Of a stretch of DNA of 64,000 nt, positions 15,626 through 63,369 are shown one piece after another; position 1 is the first letter of the stretch, and the number at the start of each line of letters is the position of its first letter. The notes under the pieces are model-generated. The model saw only the letters and a program-made list of their open reading frames with translations, made no database searches and had not been told where the DNA came from. The translations under genes and the position numbers were made by a program. Source of the DNA: Candidatus Woesebacteria bacterium (GTDB lineage Bacteria > Patescibacteriota > Microgenomatia > UBA8517); contig CP055308.1 in assembly GCA_013374855.1 (NCBI GenBank), positions 102,800 to 166,799 of the forward strand, given 5' to 3'.

Positions 15626-15648
15626 GGCTTCGCTACCGTAGAACAGTT

Positions 15649-17065: not shown

Positions 17066-17108
<43 letters not shown>

Positions 17109-17730: not shown

Positions 17731-17769
<39 letters not shown>

Positions 17770-18786: not shown

Positions 18787-18859
18787 GGGCACGTAGTTCA
18801 CCGGCAGAACGCTTACCTGATAAGTAAGAAGTAGATGGTTCGACTCCATCCGTGCCCAC
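18787..18859 (+). tRNA. tRNA-Ile (anticodon GAU)
   Basis: GGGCACGTAGTTCACCGGCAGAACGCTTACCTGATAAGTAAG...GGTTCGACTCCATCCGTGCCCA. It is on the opposite strand to the rRNA genes. Confidence 0.75.
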
Positions 18860-19422
18860 AATTCTGGAGAAAAAAGATTATTGGGATGACAATATTTCTT
18901 AAACTAGAGTAAAATATTTTCTAAATTCATTCCGATTATAAAATTTAAAAAAATAAATGAATAAAAATCTTTTCAAAATGTTTTTTATTTCTCTTGTTAC
19001 GCTGTTTTTAATTTTTATAATCTCATTGCTTTACGGAATTTTTGTTATACCTAAAATAAACAAGAATGTTATATGCATTCAATCATTATCGCAGTCTTGC
19101 TTCCTTGGAAGTCCCATCTGTTTTAATTTTCCCAATCCCTGTTTCACACCACCCCTTTGGTTTCCTGCAAAGAAAATAAAATGAGAAATTATTAAGGTAA
19201 GATTTTGAGTAGGTGAAAACACCAGTAAACCAACCCGACGGTCACAACCCCATCTGTCAATTAGTCCGAATAAGCTACGAAAGAGATTAAAAATTGAAGA
19301 AAATGCTAACGCACCAAGAATTAAGTGAAAACACAAACACCCTTTTACTTGTTGAAAAGAAAGAAAAAAGATATAATTAAGCTGTCAGTCTGCTTAGTTC
19401 TGTTTTCCAACCTAAAGTTAAA

Positions 19423-20786: not shown

Positions 20787-20956
20787 TTTTCTAAAACTCT
20801 ATTTTACAAAACAAAAATAACTATAAAAAACTACAGAGGAAAATTTAAATTAATCCAATTTATTAGGTTACACTAAATTAATTTATCCTAAAACATCGCC
20901 CACGCCAAAACCGACCCATATTAATGTATTAACACATTAATACAAAAAAAGAAAGT

Positions 20957-21943
20957 TCACTCATACCCATTAGGGTTTTTAGAGTGCCAGAGATAAGCAG
21001 TTCTTACTATATCATATATATTATATTTTGGTTTCCAGCCAAGCTCTTTTCTAATCTTTTGATTTGAAGCCCAAAGAGAATCAGCATCTCCTTCCCTTCT
21101 TGGACCAAATTTGTAATTAAGCTTCAGCCCTGTTGTCTCCTCCACAATATCAATCAGCTCTTTATTCGTTGTACCACTACCACACCCAACATTGTAAAAA
21201 CCACTATTTCCGCCACTTTCTAAGAATTCAAGAGCCCTAACATGAGCATCCGCCAAATCAAGAACATGAACATAATCCCTCTCACACGTCCCATCTCTTG
21301 TTTTGTAGTCATTTCCAAAAATAGTAAATGAGGAATCTGACAAGGCAGCCTTTAACATAAGCGGTATAATATGACTTTCGTTGGGATGATCCTCACCCAA
21401 TTCCCCGTCTAAAGATGCGCCAGCTGCATTAAAATATCGCAAGGAAACAAACTCAAGAACAGAAGCCCTGTTCATCCAACTCAAAATTTTTTCTATCATC
21501 AACTTTGTCTCACCATAAGGATTAAGAGGGTTCCTTGGGTCATCTTCTTTTATGGGCAGACTCACGGGGTTTCCATAAACACCAGCAGAGGAAGAGAAAA
21601 CTATCTTCCCAACCCCAAAAACCTTCATTGCATCAAACAAATTAAGACTCAAACCAACATTTGTATTAAAGTAAAGTGAAGGCTCCCTCATTGACTCCCC
21701 CATCTGGATAAGACCCCCTAAATGAATAACACTATCTGGATTTTCTTTTTCAAAAACTTGTAAAAGCTTTTCCTTTTCCTTCAAGATATCAATCTTATAA
21801 AACCTAAATCCCTCTACTGCTTTTTCATGGCCTGAAGAGAAATTATCAACTACAAAAGGGTCATATCCTGATTTTTCAAGCGCTCTTATTACAAAACCTC
21901 CTATATACCCAGCCCCTCCTGCAACAAGAACCTTTTTGCCCAT
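20957..21943 (-). CDS. galE: UDP-glucose 4-epimerase / NAD-dependent epimerase
   Basis: N-terminal GGAGYIGGFV Rossmann motif and GalE-like collinearity (YxxxK region, ...HVLDLADAH...). Confidence 0.85.
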   Translation of the reverse strand: MGKKVLVAGGAGYIGGFVIRALEKSGYDPFVVDNFSSGHEKAVEGFRFYKIDILKEKEKLLQVFEKENPDSVIHLGGLIQMGESMREPSLYFNTNVGLSLNLFDAMKVFGVGKIVFSSSAGVYGNPVSLPIKEDDPRNPLNPYGETKLMIEKILSWMNRASVLEFVSLRYFNAAGASLDGELGEDHPNESHIIPLMLKAALSDSSFTIFGNDYKTRDGTCERDYVHVLDLADAHVRALEFLESGGNSGFYNVGCGSGTTNKELIDIVEETTGLKLNYKFGPRREGDADSLWASNQKIRKELGWKPKYNIYDIVRTAYLWHSKNPNGYE

Positions 21944-22043
21944 AAAACAATTATATCAATCAATTTCCTAAATCAAACTCGCAAAAGAAAGCCTTTGCAG
22001 AAAAAAGATAAAATTATGCACTAACTGCTATAATTAGTAGTGT

Positions 22044-24230
22044 ATGTTCCAAAATCAAGATGAAATAATCACATTAAATCTTAAAGTTCCAAGAAACAGC
22101 AAGACAACACCCGAAGCCTGCCAAACCTTTCTGTCTGCCCTGACCCAAATAAACGCAGTCTCTTTTTGGGAGAGACTAATAGGCACTATTGTTCAACCCC
22201 TTGCTTTAGAAATAGCTCTTGTTAATCAGCAGATAAGATTCCAGATCTCGGCAGACAAAGACATTACCCCTTTTGTCGCAACCCAGCTTCAATCAAACTA
22301 CCCTCTTGTAATAATAGAAAAAACAGCAGACCCTCTTTCCTACCCACAAGTTTATAACATTAATATTAATCCTCTTGAAATAATTTCTCTTTCTCTAAAA
22401 AAAGGAAATTACTATCCAATAGCAACATATGACACTTTTTCTGATATAGATCCCCTGTCATCTATTCTATCTATTCTTTCAAAATCAACACCTGATACGT
22501 TTGCAATAATTCAATTTGCTCTTGAGGCAACAGATTCCTCTTGGCAACAAAAAGGAGCGTCTTTTGCTGAAAAGGGAACAAAAAATGACGATGGTACTTA
22601 TTCCCCAAGAGCGGACAAAAATATAATAAATGATAAAATTTCTTATACAGGTTTTAGAACCTCAATAAGAATTGCTTCAAACCAAACTAGAACCGTAAAA
22701 GAGTTGGCTAGTGCCTTCGGAGTTTTTGCAAGAGCCGACGGAAATTCTTTTAAAACCGAAAAAAGAAAATTTACGTTTTTAAGAACCGACAACAGAAAAG
22801 ATCTGATTTTAAGAAAAGTTAAAGGAAATCAAATACTAAATATAAAAGAACTTGCTACCCTATGGCATTTGCCTTCAGAAAAAATAAAAGTACCAGGAAT
22901 TGGCTGGGGACATTCCGTTTTATACGAACCGCCAGAAAATCTACCAGTTGCCACAGCGGATGAGGAGACAAAAAAAGATATAAACTTCTTTGCCAAAACC
23001 ATCTTTAGAAACCAAGAAGTGATTTTTGGAATAAAAAGCAAAGACAGAACCCGACACATCTGGGCAGTTGGAAAAACAGGAACAGGTAAATCAACAATGA
23101 TGGCAAATATGATTATTGATGACTTTAAAAAAGACCGGGGGGTTGCATATATTGACCCTCATGGAGACACTTGTGACATTCTTCTTGATTACATCCCCTC
23201 ACACAGAATAAATGATACTGTTTATTTCGACCCATCAGATCGAGATTTTCCTATTGTAATAAATCCGCTTGAGGTTACAAACAAAGAAGAGGCAGAACTT
23301 GTAGTCTCAGGGCTAATGAGTATTTTTACCAAAGTATGGGCAAATGTTTGGTCTGCCAGAATGGAATACATCCTGCGAAATTCTTTTATGAGCTTAACTG
23401 AATATCCAAACGCCACACTTGCTGATGTATTAAAAATACTTGTTGATAAAGGTTTCAGAAACAATGTCTTGCAAAAAGTTACAGACCCAAGTTTGATTCA
23501 TTTCTGGAAAGAAGAGTATGAAAAAATGCCTGACAGGCTTCAAAAAGAAGCCATCGCTCCAATTCAAAACAAGGTTGGACAATTTGTAACATCCCCACTT
23601 ATAAGGAGAATAATCGGCAAGCCAAAAAGCACCCTTTCTCTTGAAAAAGTAATAAATGAGGGAAAAATACTTCTTGCCAACCTTTCCCAAGGAAGGCTGG
23701 GTGAAGACAATGCAAACCTGCTTGGAGCGATGCTTATTACTCAAATTCAGCTTGCTGCGATGAGGCGTGTAAACATACCTGTAGAACAAAGGCGACCTTT
23801 CTACTTATTTGTTGACGAGTTTCAAAATTTTGCCACAGACTCATTTATAAAAATACTTTCAGAGATAAGAAAATACAATCTTTCCCTCACTCTTGCCAAT
23901 CAGTATATGGCACAAATTCCAGAAAATGTAAGAAAAGCAATTCTTGGAAACGCTGGAACAATAATCACCTTTTCTGCGGGGGCAGAAGATGCATCTGTTT
24001 TAAGCAAGGAATTTGCCGAGGTTTTCTCCGAAAACGATCTTGTTAATCTTGCCAATTACCAAATAGCAATAAAGCTAATGATTGACGGCCATTCTTCCCG
24101 ACCTTTTCTTGCACAAACATTGCCACTTCCCCTTTCAAAAAACCAAAACAGAGAAAAAATAATAGAAGTCTCACGACAGCGATACGCAGATAAAACAGCA
24201 GGTATTAGGCATAACTTCTCAACAAACTAA
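22044..24230 (+). CDS. VirD4/TraG/TrwB-like P-loop ATPase (type IV secretion system DNA-binding-domain protein family). This copy has no N-terminal TM.
   Basis: Walker A AVGKTGTGKST and Walker B FYLFVDEFQNFA. 728 aa. It is a paralog of 61051..63369. Confidence 0.55.
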   Translation: MFQNQDEIITLNLKVPRNSKTTPEACQTFLSALTQINAVSFWERLIGTIVQPLALEIALVNQQIRFQISADKDITPFVATQLQSNYPLVIIEKTADPLSYPQVYNININPLEIISLSLKKGNYYPIATYDTFSDIDPLSSILSILSKSTPDTFAIIQFALEATDSSWQQKGASFAEKGTKNDDGTYSPRADKNIINDKISYTGFRTSIRIASNQTRTVKELASAFGVFARADGNSFKTEKRKFTFLRTDNRKDLILRKVKGNQILNIKELATLWHLPSEKIKVPGIGWGHSVLYEPPENLPVATADEETKKDINFFAKTIFRNQEVIFGIKSKDRTRHIWAVGKTGTGKSTMMANMIIDDFKKDRGVAYIDPHGDTCDILLDYIPSHRINDTVYFDPSDRDFPIVINPLEVTNKEEAELVVSGLMSIFTKVWANVWSARMEYILRNSFMSLTEYPNATLADVLKILVDKGFRNNVLQKVTDPSLIHFWKEEYEKMPDRLQKEAIAPIQNKVGQFVTSPLIRRIIGKPKSTLSLEKVINEGKILLANLSQGRLGEDNANLLGAMLITQIQLAAMRRVNIPVEQRRPFYLFVDEFQNFATDSFIKILSEIRKYNLSLTLANQYMAQIPENVRKAILGNAGTIITFSAGAEDASVLSKEFAEVFSENDLVNLANYQIAIKLMIDGHSSRPFLAQTLPLPLSKNQNREKIIEVSRQRYADKTAGIRHNFSTN

Positions 24231-24440
24231 CAAAAATAACACAACAGAAAATAGCCAATTTTTTTATTACCAGTCGAAATTTGAGGTTCTACCGCAAAGA
24301 CCTAAAACTTAAAATTTAGTTTTCAAAAGACTGTTAAACACAATTGAAAATTCAATACCCAGATTATGGCTGGAAGAGGTGCCCCGTTTTTTAAAAGAAA
24401 AACGGCGACATTAAAACTTGGGTGTATAAACACTCCTTAG

Positions 24441-25935
<1,495 letters not shown>

Positions 25936-37635: not shown

Positions 37636-37926
37636 CTATTTCTTTTCTTTCTTCAGCTGATTGAGCTTCCACATAAACAACCTTGGTTTTGATTTAACAT
37701 TTTTTGCATCTTTTACAAAATTTCTTGCTGCCTCTAGAAGGCCGCGTGGAGTTTCCTTTGCAAGCTTTATATAAAGCGAGCGGTTTTTCAAATCCCCAAG
37801 CTCACGAGCCAGCTCGTAGCCATACTTCTGAAACTCGTAAGTAATATATTTATCTTCATCTGATTTGAAATCAGAAAGAATATCGGCAATATTAAAAAAA
37901 GAACCTTGCGTCTTTGTTTTTTTCAC
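37636..37926 (-). CDS. Hypothetical protein (96 aa)
   Basis: ORF only. Its stop overlaps the pth start. Confidence 0.4.
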   Translation of the reverse strand: MKKTKTQGSFFNIADILSDFKSDEDKYITYEFQKYGYELARELGDLKNRSLYIKLAKETPRGLLEAARNFVKDAKNVKSKPRLFMWKLNQLKKEKK

Positions 37927-38459
37927 TTTAGGAAAACTCTTTTCAAAAAATCGGAAGCTACCTTTTCAATGACACCTCCTATTATTTTCTCTTCAGCAGG
38001 CAAGAAATCTTTTAATATATACTCTTCACCTTTTTCTTTGTTTTCTTTACTTCTATTGTCAACCCCAAGCCTTATATGCCAAAAAGAACTGCTACTAAGT
38101 AAATCAATTATCGAAAAAACACCATTGTGAGTTTTTGGAGGTTTGTCAAAAACTATTTTATATTGGCCTAAAGGAATATCCAGATCATCATACGCAAGCC
38201 AAAGTTGAGAAATAGGTATCTTGTAAAAAGAAACTATTTTAGATACTGCTTTCCCTGAAAAATTCATCATCGTTTGAGGTTTTGCCAAGATTAAGTCGTC
38301 AATCTGGCAAAGTAAAGAGTCAAATTTTTTGCTATAAGAAAAGTAAAGACCTTCTTCTTTCAAGGTTTCAAAAACCTTATCAACAAACACAAAACCCACA
38401 TTGTGTCGGTTCTTCCGATAGCTCTCTCCTTTGTTTCCCAGACCCGCCAAAAGTTTCAT
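37923..38459 (-). CDS. pth: Peptidyl-tRNA hydrolase
   Basis: MKLLAGLGNKGESYRKNRHNVGF matches the Pth N-terminal signature. The start was set at the second Met. Confidence 0.85.
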   Translation of the reverse strand: MKLLAGLGNKGESYRKNRHNVGFVFVDKVFETLKEEGLYFSYSKKFDSLLCQIDDLILAKPQTMMNFSGKAVSKIVSFYKIPISQLWLAYDDLDIPLGQYKIVFDKPPKTHNGVFSIIDLLSSSSFWHIRLGVDNRSKENKEKGEEYILKDFLPAEEKIIGGVIEKVASDFLKRVFLK

Positions 38460-38486
38460 ACAGAAGTATTTTATCACTTCCTACTT

Positions 38487-40608: not shown

Positions 40609-42318
40609 TCAGGAGATTTTATAAATCCTTTTTATCTCAGGAACCGTTGTTGCCTCAGATAAACTCTTATCATCTCTCACTCTAACTAATCTTGGAAAAC
40701 GAAGCGCAAAACCGCAAGAATGAACCGGGCTTTTGGTTATCTCATCTGCCGCAACTTCAACCACTACTGACGGCTCAACCCAAAAATCAGGAAGTAATGT
40801 TTTATCCACCTCTCCATATTCTTTTGGTTTAACCTCTGTTTTAATTTTATTCAAAAGTCTGTACATCTCCTCAAACTGTTCATCAGTAAGACCTGTACCC
40901 AGCTTAGTGATGGTTAAAATTTTATCTTTTTGCACAACCCCCAACAAAAGGCCACCCAAACCAAATTTTGTTCTTTTTCCTTTGCCCACATAATAACCCA
41001 TAACCACACAATCTATTGTGTCTGCCAATTTTCCGGCTGATTTCTTTTCCTCTTTTATCTTCACCCACCGCCATCCAGTTCTGCCAGAGACATAAGGACT
41101 ATCCATTTTTTTAACCACAATCCCCTCATAACCACGAACCGAATATTCTCTAAACTTTTCTTCTATCAAAGAATAAGAATCTGCTGGTACAAAATCAACA
41201 ACTCTAAAAACAGAATTCTCTTTAACAACATTTTTCAAAATACTCTTTCTTTCAGTATAGGGATTGTTCATCAAATTAACTTCAGATTCCAAAAGGATAT
41301 CAAAAACATAAAATTGTATGGGGACTGAATAAGAATAAGATTCTATATTATGCTTTCTCCTTCTTGTCATGGTTGTCTGAAAATCAGCTATTCTTTTTCT
41401 CTCCTCATCTACTCCAACCGCCTCTGTATCAAGAATCAAAGAAGAAGAATTGCTTGCTTCTTCAATTTTTAAAAGCTCTGGAAACATCCAAGAGACCTCA
41501 TTCAAATTGCGAGTGTATGCCTTAACAAAACCATCTTTTCCTTTTTTATAATGAATCTGGAGCCTCAGGCCATCAATCTTGGGCTCAATACCAACCCTCC
41601 CCATTTTCTTAATTATCTCCTCAGGATCTTTCAGTCTTTGGGCAAGCATTGGCAAAACAGGAACACCCACAACAGGGGAGATATTTTTGACAGCTTCATC
41701 AATCCCAAAATTCTTGACCTTCATCGCCAGAAGACCAACATCAGGCAAAACAAAATATGCTCTCTCAAGCAACGGCTTCTTGGACTTATCACCTGTCTCG
41801 TACCAAGAAAGAGCGTCCAATATGGTTTTATCTGAGAACCCAAGGCGCAACTTACCCAACGGAATTCTTGTAATAAATTTGGAAGAAAGCGGGTCAACAA
41901 AAGACAAAATTTCAGCAAAATTTCTAATCTTTCTCTCTTGGCTTCCTTCTCCAGAATCAAGTGCTACTTTAAGGAGTAGGTCATAGATTTCCTCAACTGT
42001 GGGATCCTTTTTACTTTCACTCTTGTTCAAATTAAAAGAAACATCTCCCAAATCACCAACTCTTTTAAAAACCTCAATAACCTTACTTTTCTCAACAGAA
42101 AAAGCCAAAGAAAGAGATTCTATAACCATCTTTTCTGCCAGATTAAAAACAATACCCTCATATTTCGGCTTCAAAAGCCCCAAAACTAAATAACAAACTT
42201 TATCAATTTCTTCTTTTTTACTCTCTTTAAAAAGCTCAGCTAAAATTTCGGTTATTTTGATTCTTGAAGTATTTTTCTCAAGCTGTTCAAGATATAAAGA
42301 AAGCTTACTAAATCTCAT
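40609..42318 (-). CDS. ATP-dependent DNA ligase
   Basis: Adenylation motif I EPKIDGLR plus nucleotidyltransferase and OB-domain collinearity. 569 aa. No adjacent Ku gene. Confidence 0.8.
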   Translation of the reverse strand: MRFSKLSLYLEQLEKNTSRIKITEILAELFKESKKEEIDKVCYLVLGLLKPKYEGIVFNLAEKMVIESLSLAFSVEKSKVIEVFKRVGDLGDVSFNLNKSESKKDPTVEEIYDLLLKVALDSGEGSQERKIRNFAEILSFVDPLSSKFITRIPLGKLRLGFSDKTILDALSWYETGDKSKKPLLERAYFVLPDVGLLAMKVKNFGIDEAVKNISPVVGVPVLPMLAQRLKDPEEIIKKMGRVGIEPKIDGLRLQIHYKKGKDGFVKAYTRNLNEVSWMFPELLKIEEASNSSSLILDTEAVGVDEERKRIADFQTTMTRRRKHNIESYSYSVPIQFYVFDILLESEVNLMNNPYTERKSILKNVVKENSVFRVVDFVPADSYSLIEEKFREYSVRGYEGIVVKKMDSPYVSGRTGWRWVKIKEEKKSAGKLADTIDCVVMGYYVGKGKRTKFGLGGLLLGVVQKDKILTITKLGTGLTDEQFEEMYRLLNKIKTEVKPKEYGEVDKTLLPDFWVEPSVVVEVAADEITKSPVHSCGFALRFPRLVRVRDDKSLSEATTVPEIKRIYKIS

Positions 42319-49720: not shown

Positions 49721-51577
49721 CTATTCTCCCTTTAATATTTTCTCAAACTCATCTCGTGTCAACGTTTCTTTTCTCAGAAGCTCTTCTACAACAGCATCAA
49801 GTTTTTTCCTTTTAGTTCTCACAATCTTTAACGCCTCTTGATAGCAAGAATCAACTATCTTTTTTATTTCAAGATCTACTTTTTCCTGCATTGAAGGAGA
49901 GATGTTGGCAGGCTCATACCACTCCATCTTTCCAAACTCTGAAACATCATACTGCGGTCCAAGATTCAACGGCCCCAAATCACTCATTCCAAATTCAACA
50001 ACCATCGCCCGGGCAATAGATGTTGCCTTATCAATATCGTTTGCCGCACCAGATGTCATTTCATTAAAAACAATTTTTTCTGCAGCTCTTCCTCCAAGCA
50101 TAGCAGTAATTTGAGAAAGAAGTCTACTTCTTGTCTCGTGAGTCCTGTCTGCCGCCGGTGGAATAAGTGTGTGCCCCAAACTCATACCACGAGCAACAAT
50201 CGAGATTCTCTCAACAGGATCCATTTTAGGAAGAAAATAAGAAACAACAGCATGACCTGCTTCATGATAGGCAGTTATTTTCTTATCCTCCTCACTTTGA
50301 AGTTTCTTTTTAGCAGGGCCAAGTTTAACTTTAGTTGCCGCTTCTTCCAAATCTTCCAATTCTATCCCCTTTCTGTTGGCACGCGCAGCAAGAATGGCTG
50401 CCTCATTTAGCATATTTTCAAGATCTGCTCCAGAAAAACCAACAGTGCGGTCTGCGATCTTTCCCCAATCAACCCTAACTGAAAACTTCTTACCTCGCGC
50501 GTGAATTTTAAGAATTGCCTCCCTCCCTTCTTTATCTGGCATATCAAGCACTACTCTTCTATCAAACCTACCCGGTCTAAGCAAAGCGGGATCCAAAAGA
50601 TCGCCTCTGTTTGTAGCAGCAATCACAACAACATTATCGTTTGGAGTAAAACCATCCATTTCCACTAATATTTGGTTTAAGGTTTGTTCACGCTCATCAT
50701 GTCCTCCTATAAAACCACGGCCTCTTTGTCTGCCAATAGCGTCAATCTCATCAATAAAGATAATGGAAGGGGCTGCTGCTTTTGCTTGAGCAAAAAGATC
50801 GCGAACCCGCGACGCCCCAACCCCAACCAGCATTTCCATAAACTCGCTCCCTGCCATTGAAAAAAACGGAACACCCGCTTCACCTGCTACAGCTCGAGCA
50901 AGAAGAGTTTTTCCAACACCAGAGGGACCAAAAAGCAAAACCCCTTTGGGTGTACGAGCGCCAATTTTTCGGTATTTTTCGGGACTCTTCAAGAAATCCA
51001 CCACTTCTTCAAGCTCCTTCTTGGCATCATCAACCCCAGCAACATCGGCAAAAGTAACATTCTGTTTCCCCTTGGCAAAAAGCCTGGCACGTGATTTTCC
51101 AAAAGAAAAAATGTCCCCTGCCGCCCTATTTTGGGCTTTGATTATAAAAAGAAAAATAACAGCAAAAAGAATAACAGGCAAAATTGTGGCAAGAATATCA
51201 ACTACAGTTTTGGACAAAGACTGGTCAACTACTTTATATTTAACTTTTGAAGGCTCAATTCCTTCCCTTGAAAGAAGCTCTGAAAAACTTTCCGAGGGTT
51301 CTTTAACAGAAAACTTAGTTGAACCATCAGCATAATTTAAAACCAATTTCTCATCCTGTACCAAGACTTCTGTTATTTTACCCTCTTTTATGTCATTTAA
51401 AGCCTGAGAAATATCAACATTTGTGCTTGTTTTTCCAAGTTCAATTAAAGAAAGAACAAAAGGGAGAAACAAAATCAGAAAAACAAAAAATAAAAGAATA
51501 CGCCAGATGTTTATTTTTATTCTAAATTCTAACTTTTTCCTCATCTCAGGGATTTTCATCCCTTTTTCATTTTTCAT
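49721..51577 (-). CDS. ftsH: ATP-dependent zinc metalloprotease FtsH
   Basis: N-terminal TM, AAA Walker [12 protein letters not shown], and the HEAGHA zinc motif. Confidence 0.9.
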
Positions 51578-51619: not shown

Positions 51620-51973
51620 CTAATAAACCCTCGTCCCATCTTCAACTTTCTTATCAAGCGAAAAAAGAACTGGTGCAACACTCTCATCTTCTGAAGGAAC
51701 AGCCATTATCATCATACATTCACTAAACTCCCCTTCAGGGCCAATCTTTTTAGGTTGTAAGTTAACAACAAAAGGAAACTGCCTCCCTATCAGATCTTCT
51801 GGTTTATAAAACTTCATAATCCCCGAAAAGCATAGCTTTTCCCCAATTTCTTCCCCAAAATTTACTTTGAGTCTCATTACCCAATGGCTCCATTCCGGTA
51901 CATTGGCCTCAACTACAGTACCAACGCGAATATCCACTTTTCTGAAAGTATCAAAATCTATATTTTCAGTCAT
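51620..51973 (-). CDS. tRNA-binding domain protein (CsaA/Trbp111/MetRS C-terminal domain-like OB fold)
   Basis: FRKVDIRVGTVVEANV pattern of the EMAP-type tRNA-binding domain, 117 aa. It overlaps the trpS stop. Confidence 0.65.
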   Translation of the reverse strand: MTENIDFDTFRKVDIRVGTVVEANVPEWSHWVMRLKVNFGEEIGEKLCFSGIMKFYKPEDLIGRQFPFVVNLQPKKIGPEGEFSECMMIMAVPSEDESVAPVLFSLDKKVEDGTRVY

Positions 51974-53348: not shown

Positions 53349-54374
53349 CTAAGTCTTTTTGATCTTATAGACCGCCGCCTTTTTCCCCGAAACCAGAATA
53401 TCATGTTTTTCAATTAGAACTAGCTTTCCATAGAAATGCTTCATTGTCTTTTCAAACAATTCCTTTTGAGCAGTTAAAACTACCATCAAACCATTTCTCC
53501 TAATAACTCGCAAAAACTCCTTAACCATTTTTATATAAAAATCAGGGAGATCAAATTTCTCTTGTTCATAAATTCCCCAAGGAGGGTCCGTAACTATTTT
53601 ATCAATCGTGTCGTTACCCATTACCTGCAAATCGAGCGCATCATAATTTGTTACAGTTATTCTTCTTTTTAACTTATCTACACGTTCTTTTAGATATTTA
53701 TACATTTTGGGATCTTTATCATTTGCAATAATTTGCCTGTAGGGTAAAACCGTTCTTTCTAAAGGAATTGCTCCCGAGCCAGCAAATGGGTCAAGAAAAA
53801 CATCTTGAGGTTTTGGCTCTGATAATAAACAGAGAATATGAGCTAATTCTGGCCTGAGTTCTCCTTTGCGAAGTATCTTTTTATAATTAGGAGTTTTAGT
53901 AAGTCTCATCCCGACAAAACAGAATCCCTCTCTTCGCTTAAGAAACCATATCTCAATATCTGGTTTTGCTCTATTTATCTTAAGTTTAAATGTCTTTCCT
54001 AAAAAATTTTCTAGATTTTCTAACATTTTTTTGTCTGTGGAAACAAGACGATTCTCTTCGGAAACAATTACTCGAAAACTTCTTCTGTCCTTGATTATTT
54101 TAGAAGGAAATTGCCCTATCAAGTTCCCCTTCTGTAAAAAAATTTCGATGAGGTCCCTAACAGAGAATATTTCTTTGCCGTCAAAAAACTGAAGCAGCCA
54201 AAAGGTGTTGTTGAAAAAACGAAGAGTTAGAATTCTCCTTAGCGTTTCGTTGCTTTTATACATAATAAGACCATCGAGAACAAGATCGATTTGCACGTCT
54301 TTCAGCTTCTTTTTGAGAGCATCCTTGACCACTTCTTGAAACCCCGTAATAAACGTCGAGTAATAAATTTCCAT
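53349..54374 (-). CDS. SAM-dependent methyltransferase with a THUMP-like N-terminal domain (UPF0020/RlmL/Trm14-like), paralog A
   Basis: SAM motif FLDPFAGSGAIP and catalytic DPPWG. An N-terminal ~150 aa non-MTase domain. Tandem to a paralog. Confidence 0.6.
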   Translation of the reverse strand: MEIYYSTFITGFQEVVKDALKKKLKDVQIDLVLDGLIMYKSNETLRRILTLRFFNNTFWLLQFFDGKEIFSVRDLIEIFLQKGNLIGQFPSKIIKDRRSFRVIVSEENRLVSTDKKMLENLENFLGKTFKLKINRAKPDIEIWFLKRREGFCFVGMRLTKTPNYKKILRKGELRPELAHILCLLSEPKPQDVFLDPFAGSGAIPLERTVLPYRQIIANDKDPKMYKYLKERVDKLKRRITVTNYDALDLQVMGNDTIDKIVTDPPWGIYEQEKFDLPDFYIKMVKEFLRVIRRNGLMVVLTAQKELFEKTMKHFYGKLVLIEKHDILVSGKKAAVYKIKKT

Positions 54375-54405
54375 AAATATCAGACTCTTAATTAGAATTT
54401 TAAAA

Positions 54406-55428
54406 TTACGGCTTAATAAAGTAGTAAACCCCAGCCTTCCTTCCCGAAACTAGAATATCGAAAGTTTCATTAGGAAGCCATTCTAAGTTTTCGATCGCTT
54501 CTTCCATTTCATCTCTAGCTGCTGTAAGAATAACTAATCTTCCTTTACTCCTTAGAACTCGTCTCATCTCCCTTAACATTTCATAGTAAAATTTCCTGGG
54601 ATCTGATTTAAATTTTTTAAATATACCCCATGGGGGGTCAGTAACTATAACATCAACAGATTCACCTCGAATCTCTTTCATTTGCAAAGCATCTCCCCGC
54701 ATGACTCTCGTTCCTGGAAATTTCCTAAGTCGTCTTTTTGCTACCTCAACGCCTTTGGGGTCAATATCCATACCAATTATCTCCTTATAGGCAAAATGTT
54801 TAGCCCTTGACAGAAGGATTGCTCCAGACCCTGCAAATGGATCGAGAAAAACATCTTGGGGTTTTGGCTGTGAAATAAAATTAAGAAGATATGAAATTTC
54901 TCTACTTAATTCCCCTCTTTCTCTTTTTTCTCTATCGTTAGTTAACCTTAGGCCATAGTAACTTTCCCCGCTTCTGCGGATAAGAAACCAGATCTCAAAA
55001 TCTGGCTTGCTTCGATTAACTTGAACACCTAAGGATTTTGATGTTACTCTTTCCAATCTATTCATTTGTTTAGGTGATATTGGTCTTAGTTCGCCCTCTT
55101 CTGAAACCCTAAAACGAAAGGAGCGCCATCCAAAAAATCGGATAATCTGCCTTGCCATCAACGTAGATTCACGATCGATATTATTAAATAAAGACTCTAC
55201 AATTCTTGGTAAATTACTTGTATCAGAAAATTGCTGACGACTTAGAACAAGAAAAGCGTTCTGAAAAAAAGGTAAATTTTGCACTTGTTCAGGAGATAAC
55301 CTGCTGGAAAAAAATATGACACTACCATCGTACCTCCCCAAAGAAGCATCTGGGTCCTTCTCTATTAAGGCTCGGCCAACAACATCCCCTAATCCTGGAG
55401 GAAATGCCGAGAGGTATTCTGGTGTCAT
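54406..55428 (-). CDS. SAM-dependent methyltransferase with a THUMP-like N-terminal domain, paralog B
   Basis: FLDPFAGSGAIL and DPPWG. Same architecture and length (340 against 341 aa) as the adjacent gene. Confidence 0.6.
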   Translation of the reverse strand: MTPEYLSAFPPGLGDVVGRALIEKDPDASLGRYDGSVIFFSSRLSPEQVQNLPFFQNAFLVLSRQQFSDTSNLPRIVESLFNNIDRESTLMARQIIRFFGWRSFRFRVSEEGELRPISPKQMNRLERVTSKSLGVQVNRSKPDFEIWFLIRRSGESYYGLRLTNDREKRERGELSREISYLLNFISQPKPQDVFLDPFAGSGAILLSRAKHFAYKEIIGMDIDPKGVEVAKRRLRKFPGTRVMRGDALQMKEIRGESVDVIVTDPPWGIFKKFKSDPRKFYYEMLREMRRVLRSKGRLVILTAARDEMEEAIENLEWLPNETFDILVSGRKAGVYYFIKP

Positions 55429-55481: not shown

Positions 55482-56225
55482 TTATACTACCCGAAAAAAA
55501 CATTGTGTACAGGATCGCAACATTTTCGACATTCCTCCTTTCTGAATAAGGTAGTTAATCGGTGTCATATTATTTAATGATTCGTGTGGTCTAATGCAGT
55601 TGTAATATATCATATATTCAGCTAAGTTTTTGTTGTATTGTTTTTGGTCATATATGAGATTGAGGTTTGGTTCAATAAAATCTTCATTTAGTGTTTTGTT
55701 GAATCGCTCAACTACACCATTTATTCTTGGACATCTCGGATAGGTGAAAAGATGTTTAATGTTTTGTTTTTGAAGATAACTTCTAAGGTGCTTTAGAAAC
55801 TCCTTTCCGTTGTCTGTTTGGACTGTGTGGATTTTGTAAGGCAAGATAAACTGGAACTTTTTAAAGAAATCTACTGTGTTTTTTGAATTAAGTCTTCTGT
55901 ATGTCAAGGAAAGGGCAGATTTCCCTTGAACATCAATTGCCTGGTACATATACCATTTTTGTCCATCAATAATCTTTTCCACAGTATCCATTTGGATGTA
56001 GCCTAATTCTTCTGGTTTAGGTGCATACCTGACCCTTGATTTTTTCTTCCTTTTGGCTTCATTATGAGCCCATTTAGATGTAGGATCGTGATATATTCTA
56101 GCTGGTTTGTAATAAAACAGATTATTTCTTTTAATAATTCTCCCAATGGTTGCAGTTGATACCATTTGGAGATTATTTTGCAAACAAAACTCATCAAGTT
56201 GAGGCTTGAGTTTGTATTTGCTCAT
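55482..56225 (-). CDS. IS transposase orfB (DDE/rve integrase core)
   Basis: DDE catalytic core pattern (YIQMDTV ... TDNGKEF ... RPHESL). Confidence 0.75.
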   Translation of the reverse strand: MSKYKLKPQLDEFCLQNNLQMVSTATIGRIIKRNNLFYYKPARIYHDPTSKWAHNEAKRKKKSRVRYAPKPEELGYIQMDTVEKIIDGQKWYMYQAIDVQGKSALSLTYRRLNSKNTVDFFKKFQFILPYKIHTVQTDNGKEFLKHLRSYLQKQNIKHLFTYPRCPRINGVVERFNKTLNEDFIEPNLNLIYDQKQYNKNLAEYMIYYNCIRPHESLNNMTPINYLIQKGGMSKMLRSCTQCFFRVV

Positions 56226-56623
56226 TCTTTAGAACAAATTCTCTTTTCGTTCTGATATACTCAACAATCTTTGGATCTGTTCTTGGGTATCTAACACTTT
56301 TTGGTTTAGTTGAGTTGGGTACAAGACCTTGGATACCTTTTCTTTCTTTGATTCTCTTTTTCCAAACATAGATAAGCTTTCTGTCTACTCCAAATGCCTG
56401 TTTGGTTGCTTTTTCTCCAAAGTGTTCATAGAACAAGATAATCTTTTGTCTTTGGGCAGCTACCTCACTTTTGTCATATAGCCTTAAATGAGAAATCAAC
56501 TTAATCACCCCCTTTGAGATTGGTATTTTAAACCATCTCATTGGAACTCCTGTAGACCTAGCCATTAGAAGTCAATGTCGAATATGTATCTGATCCTGTG
56601 CATTTTTTCTCGGTCTTAAAAAT
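55491..56623 (-). mobile_element. Insertion sequence (~1.13 kb), IS3/IS481-like, with imperfect ~40-bp terminal inverted repeats and a two-ORF (frameshift) transposase
   Basis: The left end ccgaaaaaaacattgtgtacaggatcgcaacattttcgacatt matches the reverse complement of the right end ccgagaaaaaatgcacaggatcagatacatattcgacatt (shared blocks ccgaRaaaaa, acaggatc, attcgacatt). It encloses orfA and orfB. Confidence 0.7.
56194..56565 (-). CDS. IS transposase orfA (HTH DNA-binding part)
   Basis: 123-aa basic HTH-type protein. It overlaps orfB by 32 nt in a different frame, which is an IS3-style frameshift arrangement. Confidence 0.65.
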   Translation of the reverse strand: MARSTGVPMRWFKIPISKGVIKLISHLRLYDKSEVAAQRQKIILFYEHFGEKATKQAFGVDRKLIYVWKKRIKERKGIQGLVPNSTKPKSVRYPRTDPKIVEYIRTKREFVLKNEQIQTQAST

Positions 56624-56749
56624 TTTGTTTTAAGTGAGCTCTGCCAAATGTCGGGGTGAAAATATAGTGGAGTCGGTTTGTTGCAATTTCCTCTCTCCTT
56701 GTAATCTTTTCCCTCACCACAGGCGTTATCAATCAACATTTAATAGTAG

Positions 56750-56822
56750 TACCAAGGGTGGGATTCGAACCCACGATCTTCGCGTTATGAATGCGCTGCT
56801 CTAACCACTGAGCTACCTTGGC
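56750..56822 (-). tRNA. tRNA with a CAU anticodon (Met elongator, or Ile2 if lysidinylated)
   Basis: GCCAAGGTAGCTCAGTGGTTAGAGCAGCGCATTCATAACGCGAAGATCGTGGGTTCGAATCCCACCCTTGGTA. The anticodon stem has two non-WC pairs. Confidence 0.65.
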
Positions 56823-56981: not shown

Positions 56982-57051
56982 TGCGGGGTAGTGTACGGCT
57001 GCACGGAAGGCTCATAATCTTCCAGACTGGGTTCGACTCCCAGCCCCGCAA
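56982..57051 (+). tRNA. tRNA with a CAU anticodon, possibly the initiator
   Basis: TGCGGGGTAGTGTACGGCTGCACGGAAGGCTCATAATCTTCCAGACTGGGTTCGACTCCCAGCCCCGCA-A. The acceptor stem and A73 resemble the bacterial initiator (CGCGGGG/CCCCGCA) but with U1:A72, and the three anticodon-stem G:C pairs are missing. Confidence 0.55.
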
Positions 57052-57063
57052 CACAAAACTCTC

Positions 57064-57555: not shown

Positions 57556-58422
57556 ATGGAACAAACAGCCTTAAGAACAGTCCTTCCCGAATTTATAAAA
57601 AGCCTAACCGAAAAGGGCCGTTCTCCTTCAACTATTATAGCCTACAAGGCAGATATAGAACAATTTGTGGACTTCGCTGAAAGCAAGCAAAAACCCTTCA
57701 TCCAATCAGTGGGTAGCGAATTTATATCCTCATACCGCGACGCATTGCTTGCTGATAAATACACGCCCAAAAGTGTTTCAAGAAAGCTGAATGCCATAAA
57801 GACATTCTTTAAATACCTCAAAAACCAAAACTACATAAGCAACGATCCCGCTCAAGAAGTTGCTCATCCCAAAATTGAAGGGAAAAAGCCTAGATACCTC
57901 TCCAAAATTGAATACAGAGCACTAAGAGATACAGTAAGAGATGATATAAGAACAACCGCTATTGTTGAGCTAATACTTCAGGCAGGCTTGAGAATTTCAG
58001 AAGTAGCAAATTTAAAAATGAAAAATATAGGGGACGATAAACTAACCATAGAGGCTTATGCAAGCCAACCTCAAAGAGTAGTTCCTTTAAACAAAAGAGC
58101 TAAAGAAGCTTTAGAAAATTACATTAAAAACACAAGACCAAAAGCTGATTCTGATTTTGTCTTCGTCAGTAAAAACGGAAAACCACTTGCAATAAGAAAC
58201 ATAAGATTGGTAATCAACAAATATATGCAAAAGGCAGAATTGCCAAACTATTCTGTAAATGATCTGCGAACCACATTTATAATAGAAAACTTAAAAGCCG
58301 GAGTAAGTCTTACCTATCTTTCACAAGTGGCAGGACACAAAAGAATATCAACCACAGAATCCTACCTTCAACTCGCCGAAGTCCAAGAAGCAGGAAATAA
58401 ACAAGAGCTAACTGAATTGTAA
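57556..58422 (+). CDS. Tyrosine site-specific recombinase (XerC/XerD-like)
   Basis: N-terminal SAM-like domain. The catalytic region has R...HKRISTTESYLQL (H-x-x-R...Y). Confidence 0.8.
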   Translation: MEQTALRTVLPEFIKSLTEKGRSPSTIIAYKADIEQFVDFAESKQKPFIQSVGSEFISSYRDALLADKYTPKSVSRKLNAIKTFFKYLKNQNYISNDPAQEVAHPKIEGKKPRYLSKIEYRALRDTVRDDIRTTAIVELILQAGLRISEVANLKMKNIGDDKLTIEAYASQPQRVVPLNKRAKEALENYIKNTRPKADSDFVFVSKNGKPLAIRNIRLVINKYMQKAELPNYSVNDLRTTFIIENLKAGVSLTYLSQVAGHKRISTTESYLQLAEVQEAGNKQELTEL

Positions 58423-59479: not shown

Positions 59480-59488
59480 AAGGGCCGG

Positions 59489-59561
59489 TGGTCCGGGGAG
59501 GATTCGAACCTCCGACTTCCATTTTATAAGAATGGCACTCTAACCGCTGAGTTACCGGACC
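59489..59561 (-). tRNA. tRNA-Ile with anticodon UAU (reads AUA)
   Basis: GGTCCGGTAACTCAGCGGTTAGAGTG-CCATT-CTTATAA-AATGG-AAGTC-GGAGGTTCGAATCCTCC-CCGGACC-A. A clean cloverleaf with U33 and A37. Confidence 0.7.
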
Positions 59562-59676
59562 AGAAAAACCTTCAATATAGCTATTATATTATATATTTTG
59601 TCTCATATTTTGACAAACACACCCTACTAAAACAAACTTGCCAAAAAAATAAAAAAAAGGTAAATTAAAAAAGCAA

Positions 59677-61050
59677 ATGACTAATATATTCAAGGCCTAC
59701 GACATCCGCGGAAAGTATCCTGAAGAGCTAAACGAGGAAATAGCATATAAAATAGGCAGAGCTTTCGCCAGACTAATCCAAGAAGAAAAGAACAAAGATA
59801 ACATATCAGTAGGAGTAGCCAACGATATGAGATTATCAAGCCCACAATTGAAAGGAAAGTTAATACAAGGACTAATAGACAATGGATGTTTGGTATATGA
59901 TATGGGTTTTGTTTCCACTCCTACCTTTTACTTTGGAATAAGTTACAACAATTATGATGCGGGGGTTCAAGTCTCTGCTTCGCACAATCCTCCTGAATAC
60001 AACGGCTTTAAAATGGTCAGAAGCAAATCTGCCCCAGTAAGTGAAAACACAGGTATAAGGCAAATTCAAGAATGGATAACAGAAAGTAATTGGGAAGAAA
60101 AAATAAAAGGAAGCTACCGCCCCTGTAATAACACCACCCAAAGCGCGGTCGACAGCCTTACCAAAGAAATACCGCTTGAGAAAATAAAACCAATGAAAAT
60201 AGTTGTCGACCCAGCCAATTCTATGGGGATTCTTGATGTAGAAGCTTTCTTTTCTAAACTGCCTCAAATAGAATTAGTTAAGATAAACTTTGAACTTGAC
60301 GGAAAATTTCCCTCTCATGAACCAGACCCATTAAAAGAAGAGAATTTAGAACAAATTAAAAGAAAGGTTATTGAAGAAAAGGCGGATCTTGGTATAGCAA
60401 CTGATGGTGATGCAGATCGTTATTTCTTTATAGACAATGAAGGAAACACCATCAGGCAAGAAATTCTACGGGGAATTATGGCTCAGATTGCAATAAAAGA
60501 AAATCCCGGTGCTACAGTGTGCTACGACATAAGACCTGGAAAAATAACTAAAGACATGATAGAAGAAGTGGGAGGAAAAGCTTCAGTCACAAGAGTTGGA
60601 CATTCACTTATAAAAGAACAGATGATAAAAGAAGGTGCTGTCTTTGGAGGAGAGTCTTCTGGCCACTACTTTTACAAAACCAACTGGGGGGTTTTTGAAA
60701 CACCATTTATTTTGCTTGCAAAATTCCTTCTTTTTGTAAGCCAACAGGAAAAACCAGTTGCCGACATAATAAAGCCTCTTAAAAAATACCCAAACTCAGG
60801 AGAAATCAACATTAACCTTTCTGAGACAACAGACAAAAATAAAGTCTTGGAAACAATCAAGGAAAGATACAAAGATGGAGAGATAGATGAATTAGACGGA
60901 GTAAGTGTTACTTACAACGACTTTTGGTTTAATGTAAGAGCATCAAACACAGAACCCAAAATTAGGCTAACTGTAGAAGCGATAAATCAACAAATAATGG
61001 AAAAAAGGAAAGAAGAAATATTTAATCTGATTCAATCACTGATAGCCTAA
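59677..61050 (+). CDS. Phosphomannomutase/phosphoglucomutase (alpha-D-phosphohexomutase)
   Basis: IFKAYDIRGKY, active-site Ser loop SASHNPPEYNGFK and metal loop ATDGDADR. Confidence 0.85.
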   Translation: MTNIFKAYDIRGKYPEELNEEIAYKIGRAFARLIQEEKNKDNISVGVANDMRLSSPQLKGKLIQGLIDNGCLVYDMGFVSTPTFYFGISYNNYDAGVQVSASHNPPEYNGFKMVRSKSAPVSENTGIRQIQEWITESNWEEKIKGSYRPCNNTTQSAVDSLTKEIPLEKIKPMKIVVDPANSMGILDVEAFFSKLPQIELVKINFELDGKFPSHEPDPLKEENLEQIKRKVIEEKADLGIATDGDADRYFFIDNEGNTIRQEILRGIMAQIAIKENPGATVCYDIRPGKITKDMIEEVGGKASVTRVGHSLIKEQMIKEGAVFGGESSGHYFYKTNWGVFETPFILLAKFLLFVSQQEKPVADIIKPLKKYPNSGEININLSETTDKNKVLETIKERYKDGEIDELDGVSVTYNDFWFNVRASNTEPKIRLTVEAINQQIMEKRKEEIFNLIQSLIA

Positions 61051-63369
61051 TTACAGCCTTGCCCTTCTTGCTATTTCAGCCTCTACCTCTCTTACATCCC
61101 TACCATACTTAAGTCTGCTCATCTCCTTTATAATTTCTGCCACTTTTGGATTCTCCATCTTTTTTACCTCACTCATATCTTTTGTAGTATCAATAGAGAA
61201 AGGAGGCACTGGTTCATTGTGCACAATAGTTTTAACAAAAGCGTTAAATCGTTCAATATTCAAAAGATCTTCCTCACTGAAAGTGGGAGCAAATTCACGC
61301 GCCAAATAGGAAGCGTCTGTCACACCTACCCTAAAAGCTATTTTTGTTCCCACATTCCCAAAAACAGCATTTTTAACTTCTTCTTCCATTTGACCAATAA
61401 ACTGGTTGGCAACACAAAGATTAAGTCTGTATTTTCTTGCTTCAGAAAGAATTACAGCAAAATCGGGTGTGGCAAAATTTTGAAACTCATCAACATAAAG
61501 ATAAAAATCGCGCCTTTTTTCCTCTGGCGTGTCTTGTCTACTCATTGCTGCCATTAAAATCCTTGGTACTAAAATTAAGCCCAGAAAGCTTGAGTTTTCC
61601 TCACCCAACTCCCCTTTTGCCAAATCAATAAGCAAAATCTTCCCCTGATCCATTACCTCTCTGAAAGAAAACGATGATTTCGACTGACCGATAATATTTC
61701 TCATCATTCTGTTTGTAACAAACCTACCAAATTTGGAAACTGTGTAGTCCAAAACCTCCGATTTATGGAAATCGGCAGTCTGGGCTATCTGGTCTGTCCA
61801 ATAACGGCGCACCATTGGATCTGTAACCTTTGGCAAAAGCTCTTGCACAAAGCGTGAATCAGTCATAATACGCACAACTTCGATAAATGTATTTCCCTCT
61901 TCCGCCATTGCTGTAAGCATTGCATTTCTTACTCCATGTTCAAAGCGAGGACCAACAATACCGGTTTTGTAAGGATCAAAAAGTTTATACATTAGGTTAA
62001 TAACTGAAGTTGCTACAAAATGTTTTTGGTCTTCGGTTTTTGCTTCCAACAAATTAAGTCCCATTGGTCGTTCTGTATCTGCTGGATTAAAATAAATAAC
62101 ATCCTCTGCTCTCTCTGGTGGAATCAGGGGTAGAAGTTGCCGAACTGTATCATGAGGATCGATAAAACAGATTCCTTTGCCTTCCTTTATATCCTGAATC
62201 ATCATTTGTTTCAAAAGTTCAGACTTACCAGTTCCAGTTGCACCTATTATGTATATATGTCTTCTTCTATCGTCATCCGAGATACAAACCCTTCTTCTGA
62301 TACCTCTAAACACACTCATCCCCAAGAAAAGCCCTTCTTCAGGAATCTGGCTTGGTGCGGGAGCTCTTTTTGCGTTAAGCCACTGAATGTTTGGAGTTGT
62401 CACACTACGATTTGGAAAGTGATATATGGTTGCCAACTCTTCAGAATTCAACACTGAAGGTCTGTTACCCCAAAAGTGAAACATCGGCTGATACCGGTAG
62501 AGAAAATCTTCCATAAAAGAAGCCTTATGGCGAATTTTTCTTGACTTAAAACCATTATTCTCACTTGAGAATTGTTCAAAAGCGCCTGATATGTTAGTAA
62601 GGTGCATCTTGGCAAGTTCTGTTGTTTCAGCAACCACTACAAACCTAATGGTTACCTCAAAACCGGGTTTACCTATTTTTGACTCAATTGCTTCCAAGAC
62701 TCTGCCTGAAACACTAAATTTCGCCTTTTCTGGGTCTGATTCACGCTTCTTTGTTTCTGAAATAAAAGAAGATCCATCTTTCTGCCATTTGGACTCGGCA
62801 GGAGAAATTACAATCTGAATAGCAGCAGCTTCTTTCTCCCCCATTTTTGCCAGGACCGAAGTTATAGGTAAAAGCGGATCAACTGCCAAATCTTTGTAAA
62901 CCTTTATCGGCTTAAAATTCTCCGCTCTTAACTGAAGAGACTTATAGGCAACCTTGCCTGTTTCATTAAATATGTTATACTCAGGAACTTCAACCACCTC
63001 CGCATCTGGATAGGCACCATTTATCTGTTTTTCTATCAAGTCTTTGTATCTACTTGGGCACCAAACATAAAAATTGATATAACCCTCGCGTGCTACAATT
63101 TCAAAAGAAATAGAAGGCTGAAAAGAAAATTTCTGTTTCCAGCCTCCTTTTTTGATTGAATAAAGCGAAGCAAAAACCTGTTCCATTGCATCTATTTTTA
63201 CCTCATTGGTCCGCGGAACAAGTACACGAAGAAGGACAGAATCAAGAGATTCCTTTTCTCTTCCCCTCCATCTAAAAATAGTGAAGATAAAAAAACCAAA
63301 TCCAGCCAGAAAAAAGACCGAAAAAAGAACCAAAACTATCAAAGCCAAAATGGTCGTTGGGTCAATCAT
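61051..63369 (-). CDS. VirD4/TraG/TrwB-like P-loop ATPase with an N-terminal transmembrane anchor
   Basis: N-terminal TM pair, Walker A IIGATGTGKSE and Walker B FYLYVDEFQNFA. 772 aa. Paralog of 22044..24230. Confidence 0.6.
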   Translation of the reverse strand: MIDPTTILALIVLVLFSVFFLAGFGFFIFTIFRWRGREKESLDSVLLRVLVPRTNEVKIDAMEQVFASLYSIKKGGWKQKFSFQPSISFEIVAREGYINFYVWCPSRYKDLIEKQINGAYPDAEVVEVPEYNIFNETGKVAYKSLQLRAENFKPIKVYKDLAVDPLLPITSVLAKMGEKEAAAIQIVISPAESKWQKDGSSFISETKKRESDPEKAKFSVSGRVLEAIESKIGKPGFEVTIRFVVVAETTELAKMHLTNISGAFEQFSSENNGFKSRKIRHKASFMEDFLYRYQPMFHFWGNRPSVLNSEELATIYHFPNRSVTTPNIQWLNAKRAPAPSQIPEEGLFLGMSVFRGIRRRVCISDDDRRRHIYIIGATGTGKSELLKQMMIQDIKEGKGICFIDPHDTVRQLLPLIPPERAEDVIYFNPADTERPMGLNLLEAKTEDQKHFVATSVINLMYKLFDPYKTGIVGPRFEHGVRNAMLTAMAEEGNTFIEVVRIMTDSRFVQELLPKVTDPMVRRYWTDQIAQTADFHKSEVLDYTVSKFGRFVTNRMMRNIIGQSKSSFSFREVMDQGKILLIDLAKGELGEENSSFLGLILVPRILMAAMSRQDTPEEKRRDFYLYVDEFQNFATPDFAVILSEARKYRLNLCVANQFIGQMEEEVKNAVFGNVGTKIAFRVGVTDASYLAREFAPTFSEEDLLNIERFNAFVKTIVHNEPVPPFSIDTTKDMSEVKKMENPKVAEIIKEMSRLKYGRDVREVEAEIARRARL

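Follow-up and report, generated by a model that had tools for sequence, protein, structure and literature searches.

A genomically encoded tRNA-Ile(UAU) in a Woesebacteria genome: a probable lysidine-independent route to AUA decoding

Introduction

Reading of the isoleucine codon AUA by a tRNA-Ile2(CAU) that carries lysidine, made by TilS, is usually described as near-universal in bacteria. Bacillus subtilis cannot do without TilS (PMC3919564), and in reviews the UAU anticodon is treated as lost in prokaryotes, with rare exceptions. In the literature, nine species in three clades lack tilS and have a UAU gene, and a few carry both (PMC3575796); 19 species with a UAU tRNA are recorded in tRNADB-CE. 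The eukaryotic UAU anticodon is modified, according to a review.

In Mycoplasma mobile, U34 of the UAU tRNA is unmodified, Arg865 of IleRS (at the wobble-contact site) is needed, and the ribosome rejects AUG (PMC3575796). Its UAU tRNA was judged most similar to its own GAU tRNA (Silva et al., PMC1635315), and in Mycoplasma tilS is flanked by pth and ftsH (PMC1635315), its classical neighbors in Mollicutes.

Here we describe a tRNA-Ile(UAU) gene from a Candidatus Woesebacteria bacterium (class Microgenomatia, phylum Patescibacteria, in the candidate phyla radiation or CPR), found in a stretch of 64,000 nucleotides (GCA_013374855.1, contig CP055308.1, positions 102,800 to 166,799), referred to below as the window. 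The reading that we prefer, at a probability of roughly 0.8, is that this tRNA is the AUA reader of the cell, replacing tRNA-Ile2(CAU) and TilS, and that the two CAU tRNAs of the window serve initiation and methionine elongation.

Results and Discussion

The window and its features

The window has a G+C content of about 38%, and its DNA is also found on a 14-kb contig of run SRR6186653. ARAGORN finds eight tRNA genes in it, and among the proteins it encodes are a sortase, VirD4-like ATPases and large proteins that match no family. The features discussed are collected in Table 1.

Table 1. Features of the window, with positions counted from its first nucleotide.
Feature	Positions	Strand	Basis and remarks
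ORF of 1017 aa	5111-8164	-	Zero Pfam matches
Split rRNA operon	14523-25934		Protein genes between its two parts
23S rRNA gene	14697-18276	-	3580 nt against a 2925-nt model
Group I intron-like match in 23S gene	15691-15858		RF00028, 39 bits, below gathering score of 50, E = 1.4e-7
tRNA-Ile(GAU), AUU/AUC reader	18787-18859	+	ARAGORN and Rfam
VirD4/TraG-like coupling-protein ATPase	22044-24230	+
16S rRNA gene	24441-25934	-	6.2 kb from tRNA-Ala/23S/5S
pth	37923-38477	-
ATP-dependent DNA ligase	40609-42318	-	All three domains
ftsH	49721-51577	-	Pfam
Stand-alone tRNA-binding-domain protein	51620-51973	-	PF01588; between Trp/Tyr-RS and ftsH
Two tandem UPF0020 (RMKL-like) methyltransferase paralogues	53349-55428	-	Near ftsH
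IS-like pair, HTH protein and rve-family transposase	55482-56565	-	Adjoins the CAU tRNA pair
Elongator tRNA-Met(CAU)	56749-56822	-	ARAGORN and Rfam, 67.6 bits
Initiator-type tRNA(CAU), atypical	56982-57052	+	ARAGORN and Rfam, 49.6 bits
Xer-type tyrosine recombinase	57556-58422	+	Pfam Phage_integrase and SAM-like N-terminal domain
tRNA-Ile(UAU)	59489-59561	-	73 nt, A73, CCA not encoded; ARAGORN and Rfam RF00005
Candidate sigma-70-like promoter, TTGTCA-N17-TATAAT	59588-59616	-	Consensus scan, 11/12 matches; pattern match only
GlmM-like gene	59677-61050		Between tRNA-Ile(UAU) and VirD4-like ATPase
VirD4/TraG-like coupling-protein ATPase	61051-63369	-	Pfam DUF8128 and TrwB_AAD_bind

Several of these are observations in their own right. 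The 23S rRNA gene is about 650 nt longer than its model, and its intron-like match is overlapped by a 109-aa ORF that has zero Pfam matches. The tRNA-Ile(GAU) gene lies on the strand opposite the rRNA genes.

The tRNA-Ile(UAU) gene

Read as RNA, the gene is GGUCCGG-UA-ACUC-AGCGGUUA-GAGU-G-CCAUU-CUUAUAA-AAUGG-AAGUC-GGAGG-UUCGAAU-CCUCC-CCGGACC-A. All 21 stem pairs, across four stems, are Watson-Crick; the anticodon loop is CUUAUAA (U33, U34 A35 U36, A37, A38), the variable loop has 5 nt, and the discriminator A73 is followed by CCG, so that the CCA end is not encoded. The Rfam tRNA model matches at full length and scores 71.9 bits (gathering score 29; E = 9.5e-14). ARAGORN includes two more bases at the 3' end, the CC past A73, and so reports the minus-strand gene as 59487-59561. 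The thermodynamic fold has a z of -3.4 against shuffles, and the promoter candidate of Table 1 ends 26 nt upstream of the 5' end of the tRNA.

A first-pass annotation of the window had described a cloverleaf with this loop, U33, a UAU anticodon and A37 at the same place. ARAGORN, Rfam and direct reading all bear it out, with the coordinates right and the strand, which had been left unstated, minus; in the ARAGORN run that it had suggested as a check, the anticodon is called as tat and isoleucine is assigned; the gene is not a pseudogene. As far as the sequence can tell, the gene is confirmed as genuine and working-looking.

Identity elements of E. coli tRNA-Ile are A73, C4-G69, U12-A23, A37, A38 and C29-G41. 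The first five are present here, and pair 29-41 is A-U, not C-G, by rules that were set in E. coli and may differ for a CPR IleRS. Compared by eye, tRNA-Ile(UAU) and tRNA-Ile(GAU) of the window have little in common beyond universal positions. The derivation of a UAU tRNA from a GAU tRNA, an idea put forward for M. mobile by Silva et al., was considered for this gene and rejected, the two Ile tRNAs being unrelated in sequence by this comparison.

AUA codon use and meaning

The frequency of AUA, to which the first-pass annotation had pointed as a check, is 27.1 per 1000 codons in 35 window genes, every one of which uses the codon; it accounts for 36% of Ile codons and is more frequent than AUC or AUG. 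A study of TilS rates AUA usage above 10 per 1000 as "high."

The meaning of the codon was judged from the FtsH and GlmM proteins of the window, aligned with their E. coli counterparts. Window AUA codons stand opposite E. coli V/L/I in 24 cases out of 36 and opposite Met in one; for AUU/AUC the corresponding figures are 33 and 2 of 44, and for AUG they are 8 and 5 of 22. Given this abundance together with the V/L/I alignment, AUA is, as far as codon counts and alignments go, an ordinary and heavily used Ile-like codon here, with no sign of reassignment.

Could the UAU tRNA nonetheless be charged with an amino acid other than isoleucine (methionine, for example, as for AUA in many mitochondria), or read AUG as well as AUA? 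Unmodified U34 can in principle wobble with G, and some other CPR lineages have one stop codon reassigned. The alignments speak against a changed meaning, since AUA is opposite V/L/I about as AUU/AUC are and is opposite Met only once, against 5 of 22 for AUG; so does the tRNA itself, with its A73, C4-G69, U12-A23, A37 and A38. MetRS, for its part, depends on C34. We consider a change in meaning to be extremely improbable.

Conserved neighborhood and spread of the UAU family

The best named relatives of the window FtsH belong to Candidatus Woesebacteria. The closest complete genome is CP058602.1 (= GCA_013426185.1; 818,817 bp), whose FtsH (P0011) is 84% identical to that of the window and whose gene order around ftsH is the same. 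The upstream neighbors of the window ftsH are a tRNA_bind protein and a Trp/Tyr-RS; the stand-alone tRNA-binding-domain protein is also found in CP058602.1, and a UAU gene is present there at the syntenic site.

In Microgenomatia relatives more generally, the order Xer recombinase (left), tRNA-Ile(UAU), VirD4-like ATPase (right) is conserved, and adjoining this block are DivIC and two CAU tRNA genes. Relative to these, the window block has two added genes, a 259-aa ORF of unassigned function and the GlmM-like gene. Copies of the recombinase, 42-66% identical, lie beside the tRNA in 13 loci and in CP058602.1 (L111); the ATPase is 52-82% identical in 12 genome loci.

A sample blind to the tRNA was obtained by searching metagenome contigs with the ATPase alignment, which gave 80 metagenome loci. 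Of the 28 relatives that are at least 60% identical in the ATPase and whose contigs continue for 2.4 kb or more downstream, 23 have a tRNA-Ile(UAU) within about 2.3 kb downstream of the ATPase. More than two CAU tRNAs were seen in no locus of this sample.

A pattern scan of species-representative genomes, with the D loop, the anticodon loop (CUUAUAA) and the T loop fixed and all else left free, gave 107 loci with about 100 distinct sequences; these matches give no prevalence, the loop pattern being an undercount (in the tRNA-blind sample, the loop reads CUUAUAC in 10 of the 38 tRNAs). By record title, 73 loci belong to explicit CPR lineages (Saccharibacteria 27, Parcubacteria-group names 21, Microgenomates group 14, "Patescibacteria group" 10, Peregrinibacteria 1), 19 to "uncultured Gammaproteobacteria," 8 to an unspecified "bacterium," 4 to Firmicutes, and 1 each to Oligosphaeraceae, Streptomyces and Aenigmatarchaeota. 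The gammaproteobacterial titles look like mislabels or placeholders: the loci inspected (L008, L010, L013, L017, L022 and L103) have the Woesebacteria-type tRNA trio and/or the VirD4-like ATPase, a gene content that says CPR. Records with this title also include L003 and L100, the latter a 0.9-Mb chromosome.

Among the matches outside CPR are those in a Streptomyces boninensis chromosome (L098), in Oligosphaeraceae (L048) and in Aenigmatarchaeota (L073). Those in Firmicutes (L024, L030, L039 and L095), together with L092, which is titled only "bacterium" and has the tRNA of L030, form a further set; the Firmicutes copies are presumably similar to a tRNA-Ile2(CAU) of the Bacillus type in which U replaces C34.

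From the pattern-scan sequences, 93 were aligned with zero internal gaps. In this alignment 99.6% of stem cells are paired, as against 18-42% in slid-register controls; both sides have changed at 16 of the 21 pairs, and the covariation score is 0.686, compared with 0.160 in shuffles. A73 is invariant and C4-G69 is present in 78 of the 93, at positions that the search pattern did not fix. Taken with its neighborhood, the UAU gene looks lineage-typical and not an oddity of this genome, common in the phylum and universal-looking in the class.

These results also bear on whether the tRNA might be a recently acquired or decaying gene, carried in on a mobile element and standing outside the core translation apparatus. 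Its neighbors do have mobile-element-like Pfam matches (tyrosine recombinase, IS transposase, VirD4/TraG-like ATPase), and integration often takes place at tRNA genes. Dozens of Microgenomatia contigs, however, have the tRNA flanked by this recombinase and this ATPase, at 42-92% identity, which marks the two as conserved chromosomal neighbors and not as signs of a mobile element; the DUF8128 ATPase in particular, 52-92% identical across many CPR contigs, is thus a core gene and not plasmid cargo. The strong compensatory evolution of the tRNA family, the zero broken pairs of the window copy and the use of AUA in every window gene also stand against recent acquisition, which we regard as very improbable and already largely refuted.

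The two CAU tRNAs

A textbook bacterial initiator tRNA has a C1xA72 mismatch, three G-C pairs at 29-31:39-41, and A11:U24. The plus-strand CAU tRNA of the window fails these features, having U1-A72, A29-U41/G30-C40/G31.U39 and U11:A24; its D loop has 6 nt. The first-pass annotation had noted its GCGGGG acceptor stem, A73 and U1:A72 pair, and so it reads: the stem is UGCGGGG/CCCCGCA, with U1-A72, G2-C71 and C3-G70 followed by four G-C pairs, and with A73. We take the stem at 2-7:66-71 to be the same as that of E. coli tRNA-fMet, and G2-C71, C3-G70, G4-C69 and A73 presumably match the determinants of the formylase.

Orthologues with the same unusual body vary between U1 and C1 opposite A72. One of them (L118) is identical to the window gene at RNA positions 2-44 and has C1, which gives the classical C1xA72 mismatch; this mismatch occurs with the same body in L128, L150 and L063 as well. 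In more distant CPR loci (L002, L020, L080 and L181), a canonical initiator stands at the same position, beside the elongator gene.

In CP058602.1, a group I intron of about 214 nt interrupts the orthologue between positions 33 and 34, and Nakagawa et al. (2026; PMC13011429) list this gene as "Met (CAT) 33/34"; the tRNAscan-SE-based labels in that study call this initiator type "Met." An initiator is indispensable, and the source genome probably has just one further CAU tRNA; by elimination, the plus-strand gene would work as the initiator, off the textbook definition as it is.

The minus-strand gene has the features of an elongator tRNA-Met: a UUCAUAA loop, C11:G24, and G1.U72 (G1-C72 in relatives). 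It is always paired with the initiator-type gene in relatives. An A31.C39 mismatch closes its loop, leaving only three or four anticodon-stem pairs, and a loop-closing mismatch (A.C or A.A) recurs in orthologues compared by eye. That the two CAU tRNAs are the initiator and elongator Met tRNAs, as the first-pass annotation had proposed, agrees with the C1xA72 orthologues of the one and with the UUCAUAA loop and G1-C72 or G1.U72 pair of the other.

tilS, IleRS and the tRNA census

Searches for TilS were made at several levels. In six frames of the window, the only match to its SGGxDS motif is a spurious one inside the 16S gene, and in 108 loci the motif finds only ORFs judged by sequence to be MnmA- and ThiI-like, and no TilS. 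PF01171 is absent from Pfam results on about 50 window ORFs. tblastn with the E. coli protein against 191 loci (1.39 Mb) gave zero matches, a weak test in that the loci cluster around few genomic sites. No tilS lies beside ftsH or pth in the window, and the ftsH surroundings are equally tilS-less in CP058602.1. An IleRS gene was likewise not found in the window or the fetched loci by tblastn with E. coli IleRS, matches reaching only about 22% identity; the class I synthetases matched, of about 700 aa and about 820 aa, are judged from sequence to be ValRS and LeuRS.

How many CAU tRNAs does a genome of this kind have? For 95 complete Patescibacteria genomes, tRNA counts are available in Table S2 of Nakagawa et al. 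(PMC13011429). We tabulated its ARAGORN columns, where a CAU-anticodon Ile2 can be counted only as Met. For CP058602.1 the table has Ile = 2 and CAT = 1, and with the intron-split gene added this makes exactly two CAU tRNAs. The genome itself agrees, with GAU, UAU, and one intact and one split CAU tRNA, the last two orthologous to the window pair.

Across the census, which counts per amino acid and not per anticodon (the second Ile gene being confirmed as UAU for CP058602.1 and the loci fetched), 39 genomes combine two or more Ile genes with no more than two CAT genes: all 12 Microgenomatia, all 7 Dojkabacteria, WWE3, UBA1384, Doudnabacteria, and 13 of 20 Paceibacteria. Another 44 have a single Ile gene and three or more CAT genes (28 of 36 Saccharimonadia, all 7 JAEDAM01, Kazan-3B-28, and 3 of 5 Gracilibacteria), 10 genomes of mixed lineages have 2 Ile and 3 CAT, and 2 are odd cases with other combinations. 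An intron-aware survey of the same 95 genomes lists an Ile2 gene in no Patescibacteria (PMC13011429). That study does not discuss the Ile/CAT pattern, and UAU and TilS are absent from its main text.

The principal rival to the preferred reading is redundancy: tilS and a tRNA-Ile2(CAU) would lie outside the window, and AUA would be read by both a lysidine-bearing (LAU) and a UAU tRNA. Double-system bacteria are known, having been proposed for Lactobacillus casei/plantarum, Cyanothece and Ferrimonas (PMC3575796). The 10 of 95 census genomes with two Ile-anticodon and three CAT genes show the required gene counts within the phylum, and the part of the source genome inspected comes to about 71 kb (64 kb + 7 kb). 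Against redundancy, none of the 12 complete Microgenomatia has a third CAT gene in the published census, no Ile2 gene is listed by the intron-aware survey, and TilS was found nowhere in the window or in the 1.39 Mb of related loci. The first-pass annotation had held that tilS plus three CAU tRNAs would make the UAU gene redundant; at the tRNA level, the syntenic genome CP058602.1 has only two, both orthologues of those in the window. We consider redundancy unlikely.

For AUA, the UAU tRNA gene probably replaces the lysidine system in this lineage. Under the preferred reading, the tRNA would be transcribed from its own promoter, gain its CCA post-transcriptionally and be charged by IleRS, after which U34 would pair with the A of AUA; no other tRNA of the cell would decode AUA, a situation like that of M. 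mobile. This reading further predicts that tilS is missing from the whole source genome; that IleRS is adapted to U34, either by a basic residue at the wobble-contact site (the position of Trp905 in E. coli and Arg865 in M. mobile) or by being of the eukaryote/archaeal IleRS2 type; and that competition from tRNA-Met, the ribosome, or some modification of U34 limits how far U34 misreads AUG.

Novelty and wider meaning

Reading of AUA by a UAU tRNA without TilS is a known kind of system, to which the Woesebacteria gene adds one member; for this genome itself the gene is the lineage norm, and it will already have shown up for anyone running a tRNA finder on CPR genomes. The wide spread of the UAU route across CPR, on the other hand, appears to be undescribed in the literature searched. 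In this non-exhaustive search, no paper combined "lysidine" with "Patescibacteria" or "candidate phyla radiation," none combined tilS with Microgenomates, Parcubacteria or Woesebacteria, broader searches gave only general papers on CPR, and papers on TilS, IleRS and ava2C made no mention of CPR. The statement in the first-pass annotation that a genomic UAU anticodon is known only from a minority of bacteria thus holds for the literature; it does not carry over to Patescibacteria, where the gene is common.

Taken together, the window, the loci collected from genomes (107) and from metagenomes (80), and the published census suggest that the UAU route is broader than described, a whole CPR class and roughly four in ten complete CPR genomes appearing to use it. 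If that is so, textbooks would have to redraw how the two AUA-decoding systems are distributed, many natural sets of IleRS, tRNA and ribosome would become available in which to ask how U34 avoids AUG, and models that take UAU to be the ancestral reader of AUA would be affected. A more tentative proposal, which we put at somewhat under even odds, is that lysidine-free UAU decoding, instead of being a set of scattered late exceptions, may be the standing solution in much of Patescibacteria (Microgenomatia and Dojkabacteria throughout, Paceibacteria for the most part, and about 40% of complete genomes), and maybe ancestral to that radiation. In that case a sizeable part of bacterial diversity would lack TilS, and these cells would keep U34 off AUG by means of their own (IleRS, ribosome, or U34 modification).

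Comparison with known AUA-decoding systems

The closest parallel in gene content is with M. mobile (Silva 2006, PMC1635315; Taniguchi 2013, PMC3575796), which likewise has a reduced, low-G+C genome with heavy AUA use and a genomic tRNA-Ile with a TAT anticodon, and likewise has neither an Ile2-type CAU tRNA nor a tilS beside ftsH/pth. The two differ in that the loss in M. mobile stands alone within a genus that has tilS, whereas the state in Patescibacteria appears to be common to a whole class and much of the phylum; and in that the M. mobile UAU tRNA was judged most like its GAU tRNA, whereas in the Woesebacteria genome the two are unrelated in sequence. Bifidobacterium and Neorickettsia also read AUA with a UAU tRNA and without TilS, their feature being a horizontally acquired eukaryote-type IleRS (IleRS2; PMC3575796).

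The canonical pairing of tRNA-Ile2(CAU) with TilS achieves the same end, reading AUA as isoleucine without reading AUG, and its tRNA resembles the UAU tRNA in body (8-nt D loop AGYGGUUA, A37 A38, A73); it differs in having C34, where the UAU gene encodes U34 and lysidine is therefore unneeded. This canonical system persists in other CPR classes, for example Saccharimonadia, in which 28 of 36 complete genomes have one Ile gene and three or more CAT genes.

In the eukaryotic UAU anticodon, both U34 and U36 are modified to pseudouridine. A UAU anticodon is genomically encoded in archaea and eukaryotes (Nanoarchaeum, Korarchaeum, the eukaryotic cytoplasm) as it is here, and a DPANN archaeon, the Aenigmatarchaeota locus, matched the same tRNA-Ile(UAU) search pattern; these tRNAs differ from the Woesebacteria one in belonging to another domain, with another IleRS and other modification enzymes.
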